A DNA stretch of 60,547 nt from an uncultured Candidatus Saccharibacteria bacterium. Lineage in GTDB: Bacteria; Patescibacteriota; Minisyncoccia; Phycocordibacterales; CAIRYW01. Made by a program: the position numbers and the translations under genes. Positions 1,151 through 60,547 of this stretch are shown one piece after another. The stretch is taken from assembly GCA_964487135.1 (NCBI GenBank), contig CAZAOU010000003.1, forward strand, positions 1 through 60,547. The letters run 5' to 3'. The notes beneath the pieces were generated by a model. That model had not been told where the DNA came from. It saw only the letters and a list, made by a program, of their open reading frames with translations, and made no database searches. Numbering within the stretch: the stretch's first letter is position 1; each line of letters opens with the position of its first letter.

Positions 1151-1178
1151 ATTATAGCATATCTGTAGTTCATTTCAA
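1151..1178 (-). promoter_or_regulatory. Sigma70-type promoter for secG
   Basis: TTGAAA-16nt-TATAAT with TGn extension on the minus strand, directly abutting repeat element A. Confidence 0.65.
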
Positions 1179-1291
1179 GGGGGCTTCAGAAAACAGGTTT
1201 TAAAGAATACGGATATCCGCTTGCTAGCGGATTCCTCGAGCTCGCCTCGGCCAGGCTCGCTAGTTTCTTTAAAACTTGTTTTCTTTCGCTA
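1179..1291 (-). repeat. Structured intergenic element, copy A
   Basis: TAGCGAA start, ~20-bp terminal stem, hairpins gcct-GGCCG-aggc and atccgct-AGCA-agcggat, GAAGCCCCC end. Confidence 0.8.
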
Positions 1292-1315
1292 ATATGTAAG
1301 ATATTATTTACTTTT

Positions 1316-1430
1316 TCAGCGGAGGAAATAACCTTTAAAAAGACTTCTGAGCATTGACCGAATGCGAAGGAAACAATTTTATAGCAATAAAATTGTGTGT
1401 CTTTTGAAAGGCTATTTCCGTAGCGCCCCC
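1316..1430 (+). repeat. Structured intergenic element, copy C
   Basis: CAGCGGA start, 21-bp stem ggaaataacctttaaaaagac/gtcttttgaaaggctatttcc, hairpins gcatt-GACCG-aatgc and aattttat-AGCA-ataaaatt, GTAGCGCCCCC end. Confidence 0.8.
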
Positions 1431-1458
1431 TTGAAATGGAGTTTAATCTTGATAGAAT
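1431..1458 (+). promoter_or_regulatory. Sigma70-type promoter for groESL
   Basis: TTGAAA-16nt-TAGAAT with TGn extension, directly abutting element C. Confidence 0.65.
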
Positions 1459-6951: not shown

Positions 6952-7767
6952 ATGTTTCAAACAATTAAAAGAAGTTTTTTGGATCGTGAGTTTTATAATG
7001 AAATAAGTAATTTTTCTTACGGTCAGTCTGTAAAATTTTTTCTAAAAGTTGCGATTATTATTTCTCTTGTTCTCGGAATTATTTCTGGTATTACTGCGGG
7101 CTTTTCCTTTAAGTTTATTTCTGAGATGGCAGGTAAAAAAGTTCTTTCCTCTTTTCCTGAAGATTTGGTAATAACGATTAAAGATAAAAAGGTAAGCATG
7201 AATAAGAGTGAACCACTAGTTATACCTTTTGAAAAAGAGGTAACTATTAAAGAAGGTCTGACTTTTAAAAATATTTTAGTTGTAGATACTAATGCGCAAA
7301 ATTCAATAGATTCATACAAAAATTCTCAAGCGTTTTTTGTTGTTTCTAGTACTCATATCGCTTATACAGATGGTGATGGTCAAGTTGTTTTTACTCCTGT
7401 TTTAGCTGATATGGTTGTTAACAAATCTACAATTAATAAAATATTGTCTTATTCAAAATATATTCCATTTATATCAATGCTTTTATTTATAACCCTGTTT
7501 TTCTTTAGGGGAATATTTGCACTTTGTTCACTTATAATTGTTGCTCTAATTCTTTATTTTGTCTTCAAAGTTATTGGTTCAAAAAGAACTTATAAAGAAA
7601 GTTTCATAATTAGCTTGTATGCTTCTCTATTGCCATTCGTTGTTACTAGTTTTTTGTTTATAGTGTTTATCTCTATTCCTTCTATTTTTGGCTTCGCAAC
7701 ACTAATTATTGCTCTTTGGATGACTCGTAAAGATTCATCTACTGCGCCAGTTTCTGTTTCTGAGTAA
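6952..7767 (+). CDS. Membrane protein, DUF1189-like
   Basis: One N-terminal TM, a soluble domain and three C-terminal TMs. Confidence 0.5.
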   Translation: MFQTIKRSFLDREFYNEISNFSYGQSVKFFLKVAIIISLVLGIISGITAGFSFKFISEMAGKKVLSSFPEDLVITIKDKKVSMNKSEPLVIPFEKEVTIKEGLTFKNILVVDTNAQNSIDSYKNSQAFFVVSSTHIAYTDGDGQVVFTPVLADMVVNKSTINKILSYSKYIPFISMLLFITLFFFRGIFALCSLIIVALILYFVFKVIGSKRTYKESFIISLYASLLPFVVTSFLFIVFISIPSIFGFATLIIALWMTRKDSSTAPVSVSE

Positions 7768-7796
7768 ATAAAAATGCTCCGCTAAGTGGCGGAACT

Positions 7797-8216
7797 TTAT
7801 GAAAGGACAACGAGACAGACCTCGTAGTTGTTTTCTCCTCCAAGGAGGAGGGCTCCACGGTGATGACCTCGAACCTCACGGAACTTTCTCGGGAGGATTA
7901 AGCCTTGAAGGATTATTCCTTGAGGCGTTACCTCGAACAGGTCGGCGCTGATGCCGGGGGTTTCATCAGAAAACTCCTCGAGTCTTACGCTGCCATTCAG
8001 CCAGAGTTCGTGATGTTGCTTGCCACCAGTGAGTCGAAATGCGTGAATGACGATCCCATTTTGATGGGAAAGAATTTCGACCCTGTCTTCTCCTCTTGCT
8101 CGGTAAGGGTTGCCGATGTCGATGATGCTTCCGGGTTTGGCTTGTTTCAGAACTCCTGCGAGGTCCTGAACGTTGCAGGTGATTGGGATTGCTTGGAGTA
8201 ACGGGAGGGTATTCAT
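7797..8216 (-). CDS. Hypothetical protein (GC-rich accessory gene)
   Basis: 139-aa ORF with upstream TTGACA..TAAAAT and a downstream hairpin plus T-run. Confidence 0.55.
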   Translation of the reverse strand: MNTLPLLQAIPITCNVQDLAGVLKQAKPGSIIDIGNPYRARGEDRVEILSHQNGIVIHAFRLTGGKQHHELWLNGSVRLEEFSDETPGISADLFEVTPQGIILQGLILPRKFREVRGHHRGALLLGGENNYEVCLVVLS

Positions 8217-32790: not shown

Positions 32791-32818
32791 ATCATATCAA
32801 GAGGGAAAATACCAGCAA
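32791..32818 (-). promoter_or_regulatory. Putative promoter facing ftsZ
   Basis: TTGCTG-16nt-TATGAT with TGn extension, abutting element B. Confidence 0.5.
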
Positions 32819-32932
32819 GGGGAGCTTCAGAAACTACTATTTTAAAAGACACGCAAATTTTTTGCTAAAAATTTGCTGCCTCCGTCGCCAGTCGCGCCTC
32901 CAGAGTTTTTCAAAACGATGGTTTCTTCGCTA
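32819..32932 (-). repeat. Structured intergenic element, copy B
   Basis: TAGCGAA start, ~21-bp imperfect stem, cgc-GACTG-gcg and gcaaattttt-AGCA-aaaaatttgc hairpins, GAAGCTCCCC end. Confidence 0.8.
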
Positions 32933-32998
32933 GAAAATAAGAATTTACATCTTATTTAAAATAGATAATTAACGTATAAATGTTTATAATTTTATTTA

Positions 32999-38751: not shown

Positions 38752-38785
38752 AAACACCCGCGAGGCCTGGCCTCGCGGGTGTTTT
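38751..38785. terminator. Bidirectional hairpin terminator
   Basis: aaaacacccgcgagg-cctgg-cctcgcgggtgtttt between convergent genes. Confidence 0.8.
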
Positions 38786-38791
38786 TATGTG

Positions 38792-38901
38792 TAGCGAAGA
38801 TTATTTTTTCGAAAAAAACTTGCGGAGCGCTTGGCGCGAGCGGGAGCAGAAATTCAACAGAATTTCATGCGTTTTTTTGAGAAAAACTAATCCGGAGCGA
38901 C
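38792..38901 (+). repeat. Structured intergenic element, copy E
   Basis: TAGCGAA start, ~21-bp imperfect stem, gcgc-TTG-gcgc and gaaattc-AACA-gaatttc hairpins, CGGAGCGAC end touching the rpsA stop codon. Confidence 0.7.
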
Positions 38902-40043
38902 TACTTTTTCTCTCCCTGATAAGAAAGTGCCATTTTCTGATCTTTTGGATCAAAAAGAGTAATCTTAAATGGATATGTTTTTCCGAGTTCAAGAGTAGAT
39001 CTTAATTTTTCTTCACTTCCAAATTCTGAAACATGAACCAATCCAGCAACACCTTCCTCAATAGAAGCCAAAGCTCCGTGTCTGTTGAATTTTATAACTA
39101 CAGCTTCAACAGTTTCGTCTTTCTTGAATTTCTTTGATGCTTCAACCCAAGGGTTTTGTTTTAGTGCTTTGATAGAAAGAGAAATTTTTCCATCTTTTAT
39201 TTCAATGACTTTTGCTTTTACCTTGTCTCCAACTTTAAATAGAAGTCTTGGATCTTCAACAAGTCCCCAATCAAGTTCTGAGATGTGAACTAGTCCTTCA
39301 AGACCGTCTTCAACTTTGATAAATACTCCAAAATCTACGACACCTGTAATTTCTCCGTCCAAAACATCACCAATTGCATATTTGCTGACAACTCTTTCTC
39401 TGTCTTTTTCACCAGGATTCTTTTCTGAGAAAATAAGTTTTCCATCTTTTGGATTTGTTCCGATGATACAAACTTCAATTTTTGTTCCAACAAGCTTTTT
39501 CAATTCTTCTAGAATTCTGTCTTTGTCGCCATCCATTACTCTTGGATAGTGATCACTCTTAAGCTGTGAAGCAGGAAGAAATCCGTGAATTCCTTGCCAT
39601 GAGATAAGAAGACCTCCTTTGTTTGCCTCAATCACTGGAAGTTCAAAAACCTTCTTCTCTTTCATTGCTTTTTCAGCATCAGACCAAAGAAGAGCTTGTT
39701 TAGCTTCTTTTAGTGAAAGCTCTATATATCCTTCTGGATTTTTTAGATCAACAACTTTTGCAGCAACAGTATCTCCTGGGTTTATTTTTCTTACGATATC
39801 TCTTACCGCTAAATACTCTCTTCCAAAAATAATTCCTGTTCCATAAGGATAAAGGTCAATATAAACTGCTCCTTTATCAACAGTAATAACAGGACCTTCA
39901 ACAATATCTCCGATTGAAGGTGGATTACTAATCTGACTCATCAGACGTCCCATAGGACCGTCTTTCTTTTTTGCTTCCGCTATAGATTCTTCAGAATCTA
40001 TAGCCACAGAAGAAACTTCTGTATCATCTACTTTTTTTACCAT
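38901..40043 (-). CDS. rpsA: 30S ribosomal protein S1
   Basis: Four S1 domains: GDIVEGPV, NKGGLL..GFLPASQL, DFGVFI..GLVHISELDW, GLVHVSEF. Confidence 0.9.
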   Translation of the reverse strand: MVKKVDDTEVSSVAIDSEESIAEAKKKDGPMGRLMSQISNPPSIGDIVEGPVITVDKGAVYIDLYPYGTGIIFGREYLAVRDIVRKINPGDTVAAKVVDLKNPEGYIELSLKEAKQALLWSDAEKAMKEKKVFELPVIEANKGGLLISWQGIHGFLPASQLKSDHYPRVMDGDKDRILEELKKLVGTKIEVCIIGTNPKDGKLIFSEKNPGEKDRERVVSKYAIGDVLDGEITGVVDFGVFIKVEDGLEGLVHISELDWGLVEDPRLLFKVGDKVKAKVIEIKDGKISLSIKALKQNPWVEASKKFKKDETVEAVVIKFNRHGALASIEEGVAGLVHVSEFGSEEKLRSTLELGKTYPFKITLFDPKDQKMALSYQGEKK

Positions 40044-43557: not shown

Positions 43558-43646
43558 AGTGGTTAGTTGTTAGTGAATAGTGGATAGTATAATAGTAATG
43601 TTTTATTTGTTTTTTACTTAAGACTATAAACTATTCACTTTTAACT

Positions 43647-44174
43647 ATGTTTAGTAATCCTCAAAAAAATTTATTACAAACAGGTATTGCTCCCGGTGCT
43701 GTTGTTGCTGATTTTTCTGCCGGTCTCGGACACTACACTTTAGAAGTTGCTTCTCTGGTTGGAAATCATGGTGAAGTTTTTGCGATAGATATAAGAGATG
43801 ATCTGCTTAAACTTCTCGCTAAAGAAGCTAAAGAAAAAAAACTAAAAAATATCCATTTTATATCTGGAAATATAAGTAAAGTTGGAGGTTCCGGAATAAA
43901 AGATAATTCTATAGATTTGGTGATTATTGCCAATACTTTTTTTACCATCAAAAACAAAGCTCACACTACTGAGGAGATAAAAAGAGTGTTAAAAGACAAA
44001 GGCAGAATTTTGTTTATTGAATGGAGTGATTCTTTTGCAGGTATTGGGCCTCATAGAGATCATGTTTTTCCCAAACAAAAAGCTTTAGCGTTTTTTCAAA
44101 GTCACAATTTTGCTTTGGTAAGAGAAATTGAAGCGGGAGATCATCATTACGGATTTATTTTCAGAAAAAAATAA
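43647..44174 (+). CDS. Class I SAM-dependent methyltransferase
   Basis: VVADFSAGLGHY, VFAIDIR, DLVIIAN, EAGDHHYG. Confidence 0.85.
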   Translation: MFSNPQKNLLQTGIAPGAVVADFSAGLGHYTLEVASLVGNHGEVFAIDIRDDLLKLLAKEAKEKKLKNIHFISGNISKVGGSGIKDNSIDLVIIANTFFTIKNKAHTTEEIKRVLKDKGRILFIEWSDSFAGIGPHRDHVFPKQKALAFFQSHNFALVREIEAGDHHYGFIFRKK

Positions 44175-47753: not shown

Positions 47754-47787
47754 GGTATTTTTTAAGTTATATAGGTATTTCTTTTTC

Positions 47788-47850
47788 TAGCGAAAGGAAT
47801 CAGACTTTTTCAAGAGTTTTGAATTTGTATTTATTCTTAGCAAAATAAAG
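47788..47850 (+). repeat. Decayed partial copy (D') of the structured element
   Basis: tagcgaaaggaatcagactttttcaagag resembles the start of copy D; residual AGCA hairpin; right boundary approximate. Confidence 0.6.
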
Positions 47851-47888
47851 AAGAATTTTTCCATATTTTGAATTTCATTTTCTTTTCT

Positions 47889-48000
47889 TAGCGGAAGGAA
47901 TCAGGCTTTTTCCAGACTCTTGAGTGCGACTGGCACGAAAGTGAAGAAAATTTCAGTAGAAATTTTCTGTACTGGAAAAAGCCTGATTCCTGAAGCGCCC
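47889..48000 (+). repeat. Structured intergenic element, copy D
   Basis: Perfect 20-bp stem 47896-47915/47972-47991, gtgc-GACTG-gcac and agaaaatttc-AGTA-gaaattttct hairpins, GAAGCGCCC end. Confidence 0.85.
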
Positions 48001-48083
48001 TGTGTATTACTTTTTCCCCCACTCTGTTATATAATTAACACGCGAATTTAAAGGTCATTTAGTAGTTATTATAAATTTTATTT

Positions 48084-51825: not shown

Positions 51826-51991
51826 AATCCTTGCTGAGGTAGAACCCTCAGTATTTTTTTGCAAATGTTTGTTTTTTTGATATATTCTCTCTGTAGTGAA
51901 GAGGAATGAATGATGTTTGATAATGTGTTTTTGTTAAAAAATATATTTTATTATTCACTAGCCACTCGTCACTAATCACTTTCCAATTTTT

Positions 51992-52064
51992 CCACCCATA
52001 GCTCAGCTGGTAGAGCAGATCCCTCTTAAGGATAAGGTCGTAGGTTCGATCCCTACTGGGTGGA
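51992..52064 (+). tRNA. tRNA-Lys(CTT)
   Basis: CCACCCA/TGGGTGG acceptor, ctCTTaa loop, gtagg-TTCGATC-cctac. Confidence 0.92.
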
Positions 52065-52229
52065 TATGTTATGCATTGTGTAAGCGTATTGTGTAAGCGA
52101 TAGCTTACACGTAGGGATCGAACAGCGGAGTATATTTTTTCCAGCAGGAAAAAATACGAGCTGGTGCCCAATCCGAGCTTTGCGACGGCAAAGCGAGAGA
52201 TGAGGGAGATCCCTACTGGGTGGATATGT
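52048..52229 (+). mobile_element. Small structured insert flanked by a 22-bp duplication of the tRNA-Lys 3' end
   Basis: gatccctactgggtggatatgt at 52048-52069 and 52208-52229; internal AGCA and GACG hairpins and an inverted copy of the T-arm. Confidence 0.6.
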
Positions 52230-52329
52230 ATTGTATAAGCTATAAAAATCTCCGCTAGGCCTGGCCCCGCGGAAGCCAAAAATAACTAACTACTCGTCAC
52301 TTTCTTTTGCAAAATGTTATAATCTCGCA

Positions 52330-53325
52330 ATGATTTCAGTTAGAGAGATAACACAAAAAGAAGAGTGGGAAGCTTTTTCTAATAAGTATGGTTTTCCTTT
52401 TACTCAGTCTTTTGAATACGGTAAATGGCAAGAAATATCAGGTAGAGATGTTTACAGGTTTGTTGTAGAGGGTGATGGTATTCCAGCACTTTTTTGTCAG
52501 ACTATAAAATATTCTTTGCCGTTTGGATTACATTATTGGTATGTTCCGTATGGCCCCATTGTTTTAGATAATAAAAAAGAGATATTTGATGAATTTATAA
52601 ATTATATTTCTCATAATAAATTATTTTCTGGCAGTTTATTTTTTAGAGTTGATTCTCAATTGTTCAATAAAAAATCTGGTTTTGTATTGTCGTCTTTTGA
52701 CACATCTTTTACTCAACCAAAAAATGAGTGGTGTCTTGATATCAGTAAATTCTCAGAGGAAATTCTTGGAGCAATGCACGAAAAACATAGATATAGTATT
52801 CGTTTAGCTGAAAAAAAAGGTGTTAAAGTTTCTTTAATTACCGAAAAATTTTCAGATTATTTAGAAAATTTTCTTTCTTTAATGAAGGAAACCGCTTCTC
52901 GTAATAGTTTTTCTTTACACTATCAATCGTATTACAAAAATATTTTTGCACGTTTGGATGAAAATAAAAGTCGTAGTTTTTTAGCTGTTGCATCACACGA
53001 AATGGATATTTTAGCTATACATCTTATTATTGTTGAAGGAGATACAGCCCATTATATTTTTGGTGCTTCATCGGATAATAAAAAAAACTTATGCGCGCCA
53101 CACAAAACACACTTTGAATCAATTTTATTTGCCAAAAATCTAGGTGTAAAAATATATAATTTTGGGGGTATTTCCGATGATAAATCTTCGTGGCAGGGCA
53201 TAACCAGCTTTAAGAAAAGATTTGGTGGTTATGAGGTAATTCATGATAAATCATACGATATGCCAATAAAGCCATTTTTTTATAAAATATATAAACTATA
53301 TAAATTGATAAGAAAATTTGTATGA
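52330..53325 (+). CDS. FemAB/FemX family peptidoglycan bridge aminoacyltransferase
   Basis: FTQSFEYGKWQ, YVPYGP, KHRYSIRLAEKKGV, YIFGAS, YNFGGI, ITSFKKRFGG. Confidence 0.9.
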   Translation: MISVREITQKEEWEAFSNKYGFPFTQSFEYGKWQEISGRDVYRFVVEGDGIPALFCQTIKYSLPFGLHYWYVPYGPIVLDNKKEIFDEFINYISHNKLFSGSLFFRVDSQLFNKKSGFVLSSFDTSFTQPKNEWCLDISKFSEEILGAMHEKHRYSIRLAEKKGVKVSLITEKFSDYLENFLSLMKETASRNSFSLHYQSYYKNIFARLDENKSRSFLAVASHEMDILAIHLIIVEGDTAHYIFGASSDNKKNLCAPHKTHFESILFAKNLGVKIYNFGGISDDKSSWQGITSFKKRFGGYEVIHDKSYDMPIKPFFYKIYKLYKLIRKFV

Positions 53326-54626
53326 AAAATATAATTAAAAAAATAATTCCCAAAGTTTTTTTTAATTTTTATTATTTCTTCTTGGCAGAACTAGGTGCTT
53401 TTATTTATGGATATCCATCAAAAAAAATTATTGTAATTGGTATTACTGGCACCAAAGGAAAAACCTCAACCTCAAATTTTCTGTGGAGTGCTCTTAATTC
53501 TGCTCAAATAAAAACCGGTATTATTTCAACTGCAAACATAAGAATCGGAAATAAAGAAAAAATTAATGATTTTCATATGACAATGCCGGGGCGTTTTGTT
53601 ATACAAAAATATTTAAGAGAGATTGTAAAAGAGGGGTGTGAAGTGGCTATTGTGGAGGTTACTTCGCAAGGAATTTTGCAGTATAGACACAAAGGAATAG
53701 ATTTTGATGTAGCGATATTTACTAATCTTACTCCAGAGCACATAGACGCACATGGTTCTTTTGAAAATTATAAAAAAACAAAAGGAAAATTTTTTGAATG
53801 TCTTTCAAAATCTAAACATAAAAAATTTAGAGGGAAGGCTTTTCCAAAAATTATTGTGACAAATGCCGATAGTTCTGAAGAAGAATATTTTAAAAAATTT
53901 AATGCCGATCAAAAATATTCTTTTGGAATAAAAAACAATGCTTCGTATAAAGCAAATGATGTTAAAACTGAAAATGGAGTAGTTTCATTTGATGTTGATT
54001 CAAAAATATATGAGCTTTCTTTGCCCGGAGTTTTTAATATTTATAATGCTCTTCCGGCTGTATCTTTAGCAAAATCTTTTGGTATTTCTTATGAAGATGT
54101 TTTTTGTGGACTAAAAAAAATAAGTAATATTCCGGGGAGGATGGAGGAAATTAATGCTGGACAAAATTTTAAAGTTTTTGTTGACTATGCTCACGAAAAA
54201 GCCAGTATGACAGCTTGTGTTGAAACAGCGCGTTCTCTTGCACTAAATAATAAAATTATTATTTTGCTTGGAGCCGAGGGAGGTGGAAGAGACAAAGGTA
54301 AAAGAAGTGCTATGGGTGAAGTTGTTGGAAAATATGCTGATCATGTTGTTGTTTCAAATGTCGATCCGTATGACGATGATCCTATGCCTATTGCTGAGGA
54401 TATTGCAGTAGTTGCCGAAAAACACGGCAAAAAAAGAAATGAAAATCTTTTTGTAATTTTGGATAGACGCCAGGGTATTAATAAGGCCCTTTCTTTGGCC
54501 AACGAGGGTGATGTAGTGATGATTACCGGAAAAGGGGCTGAGCAGTCTATGATTATTGGAAATCAAACTATTGACTGGGATGATAGAAAAGTTGTTAGAG
54601 AAGAATTGTTAAAAATAAATGGATAA
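53322..54626 (+). CDS. murE: UDP-N-acetylmuramyl-tripeptide synthetase MurE
   Basis: GITGTKGKTST, EVTSQG, FTNLTPEHIDAH, PGRMEE, VDYAH, GAEGGGRD, DRRQGI, GKGAE. Confidence 0.9.
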   Translation: MKNIIKKIIPKVFFNFYYFFLAELGAFIYGYPSKKIIVIGITGTKGKTSTSNFLWSALNSAQIKTGIISTANIRIGNKEKINDFHMTMPGRFVIQKYLREIVKEGCEVAIVEVTSQGILQYRHKGIDFDVAIFTNLTPEHIDAHGSFENYKKTKGKFFECLSKSKHKKFRGKAFPKIIVTNADSSEEEYFKKFNADQKYSFGIKNNASYKANDVKTENGVVSFDVDSKIYELSLPGVFNIYNALPAVSLAKSFGISYEDVFCGLKKISNIPGRMEEINAGQNFKVFVDYAHEKASMTACVETARSLALNNKIIILLGAEGGGRDKGKRSAMGEVVGKYADHVVVSNVDPYDDDPMPIAEDIAVVAEKHGKKRNENLFVILDRRQGINKALSLANEGDVVMITGKGAEQSMIIGNQTIDWDDRKVVREELLKING

Positions 54627-56493
54627 GAGTAAATCATCACTTATAATTATTTGTTTATTTTTTTTGGGAATATTTTTTTTAATTATAGGAGTGGGTTCTG
54701 TTTTTAATATTGGTTATGTTTCTAATATTTTAGAAACCAAAGAAACTGAAAAGGTTTTTAATCCCGATCGGTATGGTTGGAAGGAAGTTGTCTCTACAAA
54801 TAAATGGAGTAAGAGAGATTCGCATACGGAGTATCAATTTGGAGGAAAGTTGTTTATTTTGGGTGGTTTAAATGGTGAACCGGGAATTGTTGCTCATCAC
54901 ACTGTTGTATACGAAAATGTGCCACATTACAACGATATATGGGTTAGTGATGATGGGGCTTCGTGGACTATGGCTTTAGAACATGCAAAATTTCCTCCAG
55001 TAAGATCAGCGTCTGTTGTTGAATACGGTGGAGCTCTTTATATGTATGGAGGATGGAGTCCAGAAATTGGATACACACTTGGTATTTGGAAATCATTGGA
55101 TGGAATAAATTGGGAACAAATTTTAAAAAAACCAGATTATGATGAAAGAGAAGGTCAGATTGTAAGAGTCTTTAAAGGTAAAATTTATTTGATAGGCGGA
55201 GTAAATTATGGGCTCAAAAAAACTTTTAATGATGTTTGGGAATCAAGTGACGGAATTAATTTTAAAAAAATTACAGACGCTCCTTGGGCTTCAAGATGGG
55301 ATCATGATGTGGCGGAATTGAATGGGGAACTTTATTTAGCTTCTGGCATGAGTTCTGCAACGGTTGGATATCACGATCTCTGGAAATCTTCTGACGGAAT
55401 AAATTGGATTGAGGTTTCATCTTCTACTCCATGGGGATTAAAACAGGGGCACGGTCTCGTAAATTATAAAGGCTATTTATGGTTTGTGGGTGGACTTAAC
55501 ACTTCAAATGATGAAGGAAGAAGTGATACTTGGTATTCAAAAGATGGGACAAATTGGAACAAACTCCCATTTGACGGGGAGTGGACTGGTAGGGAAGATA
55601 TGTCGGTTTATATTTTTAAGGACAAAATTTATATAAATGGTGGGATGGGGGCAGATTGGAGGTGGCAAGATGACGCTTGGGTTTTAGATGAAATATCTTG
55701 TGGAGATGGTCTTCAAGAAAAAATAAGGTCTATTGATAAAAATTATATTTCAAGTGATGAGTGGGCTTTATATTGTTTAGACAAAACGGGAGAACCTTTT
55801 TATATGGCTGGGACAAATGTGGCACATACTCCACATGCCATTGCTAGTGTCACAAAATTGATGACAGCATTGATTGCTTCCGAAAAAATAAAAGATGAAG
55901 ATGTTATTGAGGTCAAAAAAGAAACTATAGGGGTAGGAAGTCTAAATAGGTATAAAGTAGGAGAGAGATTTTATTTTTATCAAGCGTTAAGCTCTCTTTT
56001 GCTGGAGTCTGACAATGATATTGCTAGGAGTATTTCTTATTTTGTTGGAGATAATTATTTTTTGGAATTGATGAATAATAAAGCGAGGGAAATTGGGATG
56101 AAGGATACTACTTTTAAAAATTCTTCCGGTTTAGATTTGTCTGTTCAAATTCAAAGCAATACATCTAGTCCTTATGATTTAGCTAAATTGGTTACTTACA
56201 TACTTAAAAATAAATCTCTGATATTTGATATAGGAAAAAAGAATTTTATGGAAGTAAAAGATATATCTGGTAAAACCCATCATATTGCAAACTCAACCAA
56301 TGAATTACTTAAAGATTTAGAAGTTAAAGATTTTATTGTTGGAGCTAAAACTGGTGAAACCCCACTCGCAAAGAAAAATTTAGTGACTGTTTTTAAGGAT
56401 ATAGGTGGAAACAAGTTTATTTCTATTGTGTTAGGGTCAGCTGATCATTTCTCTGACACTAAAAAAATTATGGGATTGGTGTTACAGAAATAA
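54619..56493 (+). CDS. Kelch/Asp-box beta-propeller fused to a D-Ala-D-Ala carboxypeptidase (S11)
   Basis: Six Kelch-like repeats, then ASVTKLMTA (SxxK), ESDN (SxN), AKTG. Confidence 0.88.
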   Translation: MDKSKSSLIIICLFFLGIFFLIIGVGSVFNIGYVSNILETKETEKVFNPDRYGWKEVVSTNKWSKRDSHTEYQFGGKLFILGGLNGEPGIVAHHTVVYENVPHYNDIWVSDDGASWTMALEHAKFPPVRSASVVEYGGALYMYGGWSPEIGYTLGIWKSLDGINWEQILKKPDYDEREGQIVRVFKGKIYLIGGVNYGLKKTFNDVWESSDGINFKKITDAPWASRWDHDVAELNGELYLASGMSSATVGYHDLWKSSDGINWIEVSSSTPWGLKQGHGLVNYKGYLWFVGGLNTSNDEGRSDTWYSKDGTNWNKLPFDGEWTGREDMSVYIFKDKIYINGGMGADWRWQDDAWVLDEISCGDGLQEKIRSIDKNYISSDEWALYCLDKTGEPFYMAGTNVAHTPHAIASVTKLMTALIASEKIKDEDVIEVKKETIGVGSLNRYKVGERFYFYQALSSLLLESDNDIARSISYFVGDNYFLELMNNKAREIGMKDTTFKNSSGLDLSVQIQSNTSSPYDLAKLVTYILKNKSLIFDIGKKNFMEVKDISGKTHHIANSTNELLKDLEVKDFIVGAKTGETPLAKKNLVTVFKDIGGNKFISIVLGSADHFSDTKKIMGLVLQK

Positions 56494-57148: not shown

Positions 57149-57212
57149 TGGCGTGGTGGCGAAGTGCATAAAAAGATAGACTAGAGCTGAAGTCTGTACA
57201 AACAATTCCATA
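57149..57212 (+). pseudogene. Degenerate partial copy of tRNA-Cys
   Basis: aaatggcgtggtggcgaagtg identical to 57240-57260; gctgaagtctg..ttccat also shared; no T-arm. Confidence 0.65.
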
Positions 57213-57243
57213 AGGATTGAGGTCATTTATAATATGGAGAAAT

Positions 57244-57315
57244 GGCGTGGTGGCGAAGTGGTAACGCTGAAGTCTGCAAAACTTCCATGCGCGGGTTCGA
57301 TTCCCGCCCACGCCT
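57244..57315 (+). tRNA. tRNA-Cys(GCA)
   Basis: GGCGTGG/CCACGCC acceptor, U73, gaagt-ctGCAaa-acttc. Confidence 0.95.
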
Positions 57316-60478: not shown

Positions 60479-60547
60479 TTCACTATAAACTATTCACTAT
60501 AAACTATTCACTATAAACTATTCACTATAAACTATTCACTATAAACT
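60479..60547 (+). repeat. Tandem 14-bp repeat (TTCACTATAAACTA), about 5 copies, runs off the window
   Basis: Four perfect units plus 13/14 of a fifth; each unit is two ACT-heptamers. Confidence 0.95.

Follow-up and report, generated by a model that had tools for sequence, protein, structure and literature searches.

A putative non-autonomous tRNA-tail cassette behind tRNA-Lys(CUU) in an uncultured Candidatus Saccharibacteria bacterium and its Patescibacterial family

Through computational analysis of a 60,547-nucleotide stretch of DNA from an uncultured Candidatus Saccharibacteria bacterium (contig CAZAOU010000003.1, positions 1 to 60,547; the whole stretch is called the window), the 138-bp insert that follows the tRNA-Lys(CUU) gene, together with the repeat of the tRNA tail that closes it, has been identified as one copy of a large family of elements. 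The family is Patescibacterial, uncatalogued and absent from Rfam; it was defined in this analysis and is named T2, with the subtypes T2a and T2b, and T1 denotes an unrelated core. Its members consist of a conserved, structured core held between two arms, both templated on the 3′ strand of the local tRNA. The cores move from one tRNA to another, and no enzyme gene is linked to them. The explanation favoured here, with a probability of roughly 0.55, is that the insert is a small non-autonomous tRNA-tail cassette of the T2 family, which spreads between tRNA 3′ flanks and has its arms rewritten from the target.

The tRNA-Lys(CUU) gene occupies positions 51992-52064 of the plus strand and is complete, with a score of 65.7 bits in Rfam and an ARAGORN call at 51991-52065. 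Its T-arm reads GTAGG-TTCGATC-CCTAC and the 3′ strand of its acceptor stem TGGGTGG, followed by the discriminator A. The 22-mer GATCCCTACTGGGTGGATATGT occurs exactly twice in the window, whereas 0 matches are expected even when up to two mismatches are allowed (100 shuffles). Its first copy (52048-52069, plus strand) lies inside and just past the tRNA, from the T-loop base G57 to the discriminator and five trailer bases. The second copy (52208-52229, plus strand) constitutes the right arm of the element, named X, and reproduces the tRNA exactly from G57 to A73, followed by TATGT. The left arm X′, GTAGGGATCGAA (52111-52122, plus strand), is the reverse complement of tRNA positions 54-65. It is contained in the anti-T-arm GTAGGGATCGAAC (52111-52123), whose 13 nucleotides are the exact reverse complement of 52044-52056, with 0.02 such matches expected by chance. 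The spacer between the first repeat and the left arm (52070-52110, plus strand) contains the trailer motif ATTGTGTAAGCG twice, at 52075-86 and 52088-99, and the hairpin GTGTAAGC-GATA-GCTTACAC at 52091-52110. This weaker trailer repeat extends the 22-mer and reappears as ATTGTATAAGCT at 52230-41, the three copies sharing the loose motif ATTGTRTAAGC. Besides the hairpin of the spacer, with its GATA loop, two perfect hairpins are present, one of 10 bp with an AGCA loop at 52133-52156 and one of 7 bp with a GACG loop at 52177-52194. The 22-bp repeat at its two sites, the 13-nt anti-T-arm and the three hairpins had been described in an earlier note, made by a model from the letters of this DNA alone; all of them are as claimed there, and the repeat and the anti-T-arm go beyond chance.

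The T2 core of the window is a three-way junction at 52120-52207 (plus strand), indicated by the match to the family model, the covariation in the family and the fold of the single sequence. The predicted fold of 52066-52232 has a free energy of -67.1 kcal/mol (z = -7.4 against shuffles), and in it a 9-bp stem, P1, formed by 52111-19 of the left arm and 52208-16 of the right arm, encloses the hairpins at 52133-56 and 52177-94. Within the core, J is GAA; P2 is formed by 52123-26 and 52160-63 and is followed by a GGAG...CGA internal loop and by hp1 (52133-56, loop AGCA). P3 is formed by 52167-69 and 52204-06, is extended by 52171-74 and 52197-201, and carries hp2 (52177-94, loop GACG).

Relatives of the locus were collected by sequence scans and are numbered with the prefix L. 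A scan of GTDB for the tRNA-Lys 3′ end of the window led to 16 Patescibacterial loci. At several of these the sequence after the tRNA consists of an inverted copy of the tRNA 3′ end, a structured core and a direct copy of that end, in this order; L008 and L015 carry the core type of the window (T2), and other loci carry T1. A metagenome scan with a pattern of the T2 core gave at least 120 matches. The pattern fixed TCGAAC, CGGAG, CGAG and TGCCCA, so that those columns are invariant by construction. Among the matches listed, about 110 are true elements, a same-strand tRNA precedes 73 of the 110 at a distance of 22-120 nt, and these tRNAs represent 26 different anticodons. The earlier note had made its proposal depend on similar inserts at other tRNAs, and at least 73 are thus found behind tRNAs with 26 anticodons.

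The architecture of tRNA, anti-tail, core and tail recurs on over 100 independent contigs; there are tRNA clusters in which three of four tRNAs have an element after them. In the collected loci, a biased sample, 87 of 219 tRNAs carry an anti-arm, and a core always comes next, either T2a, T2b, T1 or a rarer type. A bare X′X palindrome lacking a core was considered as well and dropped, none being present among the 87 anti-arms. Whole units form tandem arrays with a period of 177 in L116 and L118. The presence of elements differs between the relatives L008 and L012, and in the syntenic pair L001 and L002 the tail/anti-tail arrangement behind tRNA-Lys is present in one strain and absent in the other.

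A covariance model of the T2 core, R2, was built, with a consensus of five helices taken from an alignment of 82 sequences. In this consensus pairing amounts to 91.7%, compared with 67% in shuffles, and 580 doubly changed cells are present, compared with 184. The covariation score is 0.617 as against 0.178; none of 500 shuffles reaches it, and slid controls remain at or below 0.14. In the well-aligned T2 helices G.U pairs outnumber A.C pairs by 22 to 9, and the tRNA-sense strand is therefore favoured. R2 matches the window copy over the full length of the model at 52109-52218 with 105.9 bits (E 6e-27), the window copy itself being part of the seed; the score of L008, which comes from an independent source and is also in the seed, equals it. 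With respect to placement, the TCGAAC core motif of the window copy starts 52 nt past the tRNA call and its 3′ arm agrees with the tRNA tail at 15/15 positions, and the 5′ arm is the exact 13-nt anti-T-arm. A search of the window by blastn-short with the insert and by the R2 model found no second copy of the insert.

The window copy represents the short form of the element, as do L023, L051 and L118: its spacer possesses neither the anti-acceptor segment nor the family-type 5′ hairpin that are both present in the long-form members. With its perfect 22-nt and 13-nt repeats it looks young. Searches of Rfam for the insert at E<=10 found only the tRNA and an antisense-tRNA artefact. Wider Rfam searches, at gathering thresholds for the window and eight relatives, and at E<=10 or <=1 for the region, a dispersed copy (copy C) and a T1 locus, gave only tRNAs and meaningless hairpin matches. 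No description of such an element was found in full-text literature searching or in Rfam. Likeness to hammerhead, twister, tmRNA, SRP, 5S and Y-RNA was judged by eye and dropped, as neither core motifs nor Rfam support were found. The window element thus falls in no known family tested, and the closest to it in behaviour are tRNA-targeting insertion elements and structured intergenic repeats.

Among the matches listed, the 3′ arm of T2 equals the local tRNA tail at 15/15 positions in 31 cases, with a mean of 12.1/15. The exact repeat starts at C56 or G57 and usually ends one base after the discriminator; extensions of 1-6 nt into the trailer are frequent, with one of about 26 nt in L115, and since these trailer bases are non-functional, such repeats point to a copy made at the DNA level. 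The 5′ arm has been made as a reverse complement of the tRNA 3′ strand and does not copy the tRNA 5′ strand, as shown by 12 of 14 informative G.U positions. Of 35 cases, the 2 nt that precede it are reverse-complementary to positions 73-74 in 21 and match the 5′ leader in 1. These G.U-informative positions and the bases pairing with positions 73 and 74 also rule out another candidate, namely that the left arm is a degenerate copy of a tRNA 5′ half, a tRNA-like pseudogene. The earlier note had proposed a minimal tRNA-targeting element, and this part of it holds: the insert is a small, self-contained element of the insertion type that is bound to the tRNA 3′ end, and its repeat stems from a duplication of that end at the DNA level.

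The cores follow a different course from the arms. Of 53 cases, 49 show a core whose nearest relative stands behind a different tRNA, for instance Asn and Glu at 92% identity or Met and Ser at 88%. Pairwise homology between T2 elements begins at TCGAA and ends at GGGMGA, and everything outside is specific to the locus. As the homology stops exactly at the arms, the arms are re-templated locally. In the long-form members a conserved 5′ hairpin is located between the anti-acceptor and the anti-T segments. Identical 5′ hairpins are found with flanks that match different tRNAs, Gly in L026 and Lys in L095, and Glu in L066 and Lys in L071. The architecture can therefore be described as a scaffold with three target-matched slots.

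Williams reportedly described in 2002 the tRNA-targeting integrative elements, the duplication of the tRNA 3′ end as attL and attR, and a class with crossover in the T-loop, and the earlier note had offered a reading along these lines. In a fuller form of this reading, the insert would be the scar or miniature of a serine or tyrosine recombinase island in tRNA-Lys, with the first repeat as attL supplied by the element, the second as attR, the displaced original, and the core as leftover DNA by attP. A repeat that starts in the T-loop is the classic signature of a tRNA-integrating element. Genes of large serine recombinases whose 3′ ends overlap tRNA genes are common (L001/L143 and L108, with fragments in L067 and L022), and in L029, L067, L115 and L139 T2 elements are situated 1.4-6 kb from the matching tRNA with cargo DNA between them. 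This cargo encodes a MazF-like toxin, a helicase and unknown open reading frames (ORFs). T2 shares with such integrative elements the repeat from the T-loop to the tRNA end, the intact tRNA upstream, the variable presence and the use of the same tRNAs as serine-recombinase islands. In contrast to them, T2 has no integrase, is about 140 bp long, carries an obligatory inverted copy of the tail, and is found at 26 anticodons with rewritten arms.

The scar reading is unlikely in view of how the cores are distributed. The same core type stands at 26 anticodons and the closest relatives stand at different tRNAs, so there is no attP lineage for each tRNA; recombinases of this kind have no need of an inverted arm, although the arm is re-matched every time. 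No integrase is present in or near solo copies, and no recombinase is linked across the loci of the family. In the window, neither the five neighbouring ORFs (49.6-56.5 kb) nor 52070-52207 yielded a recombinase domain, in agreement with the earlier note, which had seen no integrase nearby. The window copy itself shows a repeat that flanks foreign DNA, and neither a linked integrase nor a lineage confined to one tRNA accompanies it. The tRNA-Leu island of L143 has at its end a degenerate tail copy of its own and a terminator, and the resident T2b element with Leu arms comes only after them, an order which indicates that islands insert between the tRNA and a pre-existing element. A serine-recombinase att site was considered at L139, L067, L022 and L143 and rejected as the general explanation, given the separate junction and resident element of L143 and the absence of a recombinase from most islands. 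The classical attL/attR scar of the earlier note is likewise not supported, the cores being independent of tRNA identity and both arms being re-copied locally.

Several further observations concern the islands and their recombinases. The large serine recombinases form a large Patescibacterial family, with over 850 homologues at E<=1e-30; the genes run into tRNA genes of the opposite strand and end there, so that the C-terminus is encoded by tRNA sequence. The island of L139 measures 6.1 kb (MazF-like toxin, DinG/XPD-like helicase, unknown ORFs) and is bounded by 55-nt inverted repeats at 1711-1765 and 7755-7809, which resemble a tRNA tail (GTTCG...GCCTAC). It is flanked by a 178-nt direct repeat (1493-1670 and 7815-7992) that comprises spacer, T2 and tRNA-Glu tail. 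In L070 an ORF resembling a methyltransferase by motif is located upstream of the element, with no tRNA in view. Clustering of ORFs over 7 kb upstream and 5 kb downstream revealed no conserved neighbour gene other than housekeeping families. Scans of IMG/VR with T2a, T1 and T2b patterns for a viral form gave only chance matches in coding DNA, and INPHARED gave none.

Two other kinds of mobile sequence resemble the element in part. T2, like the five dispersed elements of the window described below, shares with MITEs, miniature transposable elements with inverted repeats, and repetitive extragenic palindromic (REP)-type repeats, such as Correia, RUP and REPIN, a small, non-coding, non-autonomous, hairpin-forming, multi-copy and intergenic nature. 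In contrast to these repeats, the terminal inverted repeats of T2 are copies of the target, a short symmetric target-site duplication is missing, the fold is kept by compensatory change, and the position is strict, 3′ of a tRNA and on the same strand. Membership of a MITE family is contradicted by arms that differ between copies and equal the local tRNA, and by an asymmetric repeat with one copy inside the tRNA. Integron attC sites and the CTX-phage attP have in common with T2 an inverted repeat of about 20 nt, a structured spacer, one preferred strand and cassette-like arrays at a fixed site; a resemblance of TCGAAC / GTTCGA to attC was only noted. In T2, by contrast, a highly conserved three-way junction takes the place of a variable spacer, and the stem is that of the neighbouring tRNA and not a conserved core site; no link to IntI or Xer was found.

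The three-way-junction core of about 100 nt is the unit shared between copies, accompanied in the long form by the conserved 5′ hairpin. This core is always clamped by a stem derived from the neighbouring tRNA, the 3′ strand being a fresh copy of the tail and the 5′ strand its exact reverse complement. In the tRNA-tail cassette reading, the cassette may pass between tRNA 3′ flanks through a copying or recombination step at the DNA level, during which the arms would be rewritten from the target tRNA. Such copying could be anchored on the universal and partly palindromic T-loop TTCGA (reverse complement TCGAA), and either a trans-acting enzyme or strand switching in replication or repair may serve as its agent. 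T2 has this TCGAA as its left boundary and CGA as its right. In the window, the unit is probably transcribed together with tRNA-Lys from the predicted promoter-like site at 51858-86. P1 would fold on itself, the decoy copy sequestering the anti-T-arm while the tRNA stays intact, and the outcome would be a structured RNA that ends in a tRNA tail.

A number of points weigh against this explanation: (i) no enzyme for the copying step was found; (ii) the 60-kb window contains a single copy and no close relative shows an empty site; (iii) the invariance of the columns fixed by the search pattern is circular, and the sample is biased to one subtype; (iv) a conserved hairpin between two target-matched segments is hard to make by simple insertion or template switch; (v) elements at tRNA-Cys and tRNA-Leu seem to be orthologous between the related genomes L008 and L012, which implies that many copies are stably inherited and could be functional for the host; (vi) a terminator-like hairpin with a T-run is located between tRNA and element in many relatives, so co-transcription is not assured. 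As to the second point, a GTDB scan with the FemAB protein encoded downstream of the insert found nothing close to this genome, for which the nearest FemAB homologue reaches only 44% identity.

The stable inheritance of some copies bears on a host-centred alternative, in which the insert is a cis-acting switch in the trailer. The anti-arm would pair either with the T-arm and acceptor 3′ strand of its own tRNA, so that the precursor is blocked or marked, or with the decoy, so that the tRNA is free, and the core would act as a sensor or protein platform that controls the maturation of tRNA-Lys, with a possible relevance to FemAB. The order of tail, anti-tail and tail follows an attenuator-type logic. 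In the predicted ensemble the minimum free energy (MFE) structure pairs the anti-arm with the second repeat, and the centroid pairs it with the T-arm of the tRNA. An RNA fold under selection is indicated by the covariation of the core and by the GNRA-type loops of the sister type T1. The orthologous elements kept between related genomes are also in favour of a host function, as are the many tRNAs with an anti-arm that is always followed by a core. On the other hand, the repeats run into non-functional trailer bases, the units form tandem arrays and the cores hop between tRNA types; terminators often stand between tRNA and element, and a decoy need not equal the local tRNA. The femAB link is seen at two loci only, with the tRNA in opposite orientation. 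Taken together, a trailer switch is judged quite unlikely as the main account. The narrower claim of the earlier note, that the trailer can refold the T-arm, holds as far as the complementarity of the anti-arm to its own T-arm and the presence of both pairings in the predicted ensemble are concerned, and from this predicted pairing a regulatory role is possible.

Functional RNAs are known to come from the spacers and trailers of tRNA operons, as in the 3′ external transcribed spacer of E. coli (3′ETS-leuZ), and minihelix ends resembling tRNA occur in mascRNA and in viral tRNA-like structures. The T2 element resembles these RNAs in belonging to a tRNA transcription unit and in having a closing helix that copies the 3′ strand of acceptor and T-arm and could suit tRNA-end enzymes. 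It differs from them in its perfect Watson-Crick helix, which includes the discriminator and the +1 base, and in a 100-nt domain that takes the place of the T-loop.

The three slots of the long form permit a more specific but more tentative proposal, for which the balance of evidence is rather less than even, that of a self-retargeting tRNA-tail element. Here a conserved scaffold of 5′ hairpin and three-way junction, as RNA or DNA, would carry three slots that are rewritten in sense and antisense at each target, acting by means of a trans-acting enzyme or templated strand switching at the palindromic T-loop, and the element might represent a new class of small mobile element or guide-like RNA in Patescibacteria, with a structured RNA ending in a tRNA tail as its product. 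The bridge (seek) RNAs of IS110/IS1111 likewise possess a conserved scaffold interleaved with short variable segments that match DNA. The differences from the bridge RNAs are that no recombinase is associated with T2 in the loci examined, that its segments are complementary to each other and equal the flank, and that no counterpart of donor binding was identified. A true RNA-guided mobile element, in which a scaffold with programmable segments directs a recombinase in trans as IS110 bridge RNAs do, is very unlikely. The scaffold and three slots do match both strands of one 20-bp target, and the size is near that of known guide scaffolds. However, the loci examined show no linked transposase of DEDD, IS110 or other type, the slots pair with each other, which would occlude them, and the supposed guide is the flank itself, which could equally be a product of insertion.

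The least probable account, given hardly any credence, is that the structure is an intron in the T-loop or an alternative 3′ end of tRNA-Lys, or else an assembly artefact or chance repeat. The MFE structure of 51992-52240 pairs the 5′ acceptor strand of the tRNA with the distal copy of the tail and so forms a tRNA with a giant T-loop, which is in line with an alternative 3′ end. The upstream tRNA is, however, complete with a normal score, a search at E<=10 matched neither introns nor ribozymes, relatives have spacers and terminator-like hairpins in between, and the repeats exceed chance. The T-loop intron offered in the earlier note is therefore not retained. The assembly artefact that it had named as a danger is countered by the same architecture in more than 100 contigs.

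Apart from the tRNA-Lys insert, the window contains a set of dispersed elements. A covariance model named R1, made from four dispersed copies, finds five copies in the window: 1168-1298 (minus), 1309-1440 (plus), 32809-32940 (minus), 38784-38913 (plus) and 47882-48011 (plus). Partial 5′ arms of R1 were observed at 47782-47819 and 47832-47869. R1 elements are three-way junctions of about 115 nt with many compensatory changes, in which the hairpin with a GAC(U)G loop comes first and that with an AGCA loop second. Four of the five copies abut a -35/-10-like promoter in the same orientation, at groES-groEL, a minus-strand gene, the ftsZ region and the type IV secretion system (T4SS)-pilin genes, and the fifth comes after a terminator between convergent genes.

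The tRNA-Lys insert is not a member of R1, since its AGCA hairpin alone matches (10.6 bits, E ~0.9). The connection appears to run through T2b, in which the order of hairpins is swapped relative to T2a and which has the core type of the R1 elements of the window, themselves provided with a non-tRNA stem. R1 matches T2b elements with arms of tRNA-Trp (L104, 32 bits) and of tRNA-Leu(taa) (L143/L001, 29 bits; L015, 24 bits). R2 matches the T2b element of L143/L001 with 30 bits and, weakly, the GGAG-hairpin-CG module of the R1 copy B. Judged by these sequence matches, R1 and the insert are related at the level of a superfamily through T2b intermediates. The earlier note had taken the insert for a circularly permuted relative of the dispersed element with swapped loops; the kinship and the opposite order stand, the relation being a module swap between subtypes, which a circular permutation may or may not underlie. 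In L053 (1-95, minus strand) an R1-type element (54 bits) apparently lies inside the second hairpin of a T2 element, which suggests that R1-type units insert independently.

The T1 core (TCGAAAACCTTTTGAG...ATCCAAAAGGTGTAC and a hairpin with a GUAA loop) is set in the same tRNA-tail frame in L005, L006, L010, L001 and L013, for example at L006:375-540 on the minus strand. Its sequence is nearly identical across distant genomes and is not in Rfam. The T1 element of L013 follows tRNA-Leu and has arms that match tRNA-Leu and not tRNA-Lys. At 57150-57243 of the window, between tRNA-Leu(UAA) and tRNA-Cys (57244-57315) and immediately before the latter, the 5′ half of tRNA-Cys is repeated as a partial, interrupted copy (GGCGTGGTGGCGAAGTG ... 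GCTGAAGTCTG); in other genomes the spacer between these two genes holds a T2b element. A 14-nt tandem repeat, ACTATAAACTATTC, is present in five copies from 60479 to the window end at 60547, with a single copy at 43620-43647. ARAGORN labels the tRNAs at L001:5698-5771, L002:430-503 and L015:7596-7668 as tRNA-Stop(tta); inspection by eye gives CTTTTAA (Lys, UUU) as the anticodon loop, and the label looks like a register artefact.

The five ORFs that neighbour the insert encode a Band_7 protein, an unknown protein of 139 residues, a FemAB-family transferase, a Mur ligase and a penicillin-binding protein (PBP). A consensus scan indicates a promoter-like site, TTGCAA-16-TATATT, upstream of tRNA-Lys (51858-51886, plus strand). 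No other such site precedes the element; the femAB-like gene is served by the next, at 52294-52323, and a scan of the window found no terminator between tRNA-Lys and this femAB promoter. The motif ACTAnCnACTCGTCACT is shared by the regions upstream of tRNA-Lys (51957-51973) and of the femAB-like gene (52285-52301). Genes of the FemAB, Mur-ligase and PBP (S11) families adjoin tRNA-Lys both in the window (52330-56493) and in L001 (6001-9591), with the tRNA of L001 oppositely oriented. FemAB enzymes use aminoacyl-tRNA, and the adjacency of femAB and tRNA-Lys may or may not be meaningful.

If the tRNA-tail cassette reading is true, Patescibacteria carry a very abundant, uncatalogued structured element, present at more than 100 loci. 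Compared with Rfam and the literature searched, the novelty lies in two arms copied in opposite senses from the 3′ strand of the adjacent tRNA and in a scaffold interleaved with target-matched segments. For annotation, T2 loci look like tRNA fragments, att sites or miRNA-like hairpins and will confuse programs that call islands from tRNA-tail repeats. The cassette would open the way to the copying route, to a possible mechanism of T-loop recombination or template switching and to the reprogramming of the arms, and it would bear on trailer RNAs that control or protect tRNA maturation in bacteria with reduced genomes.

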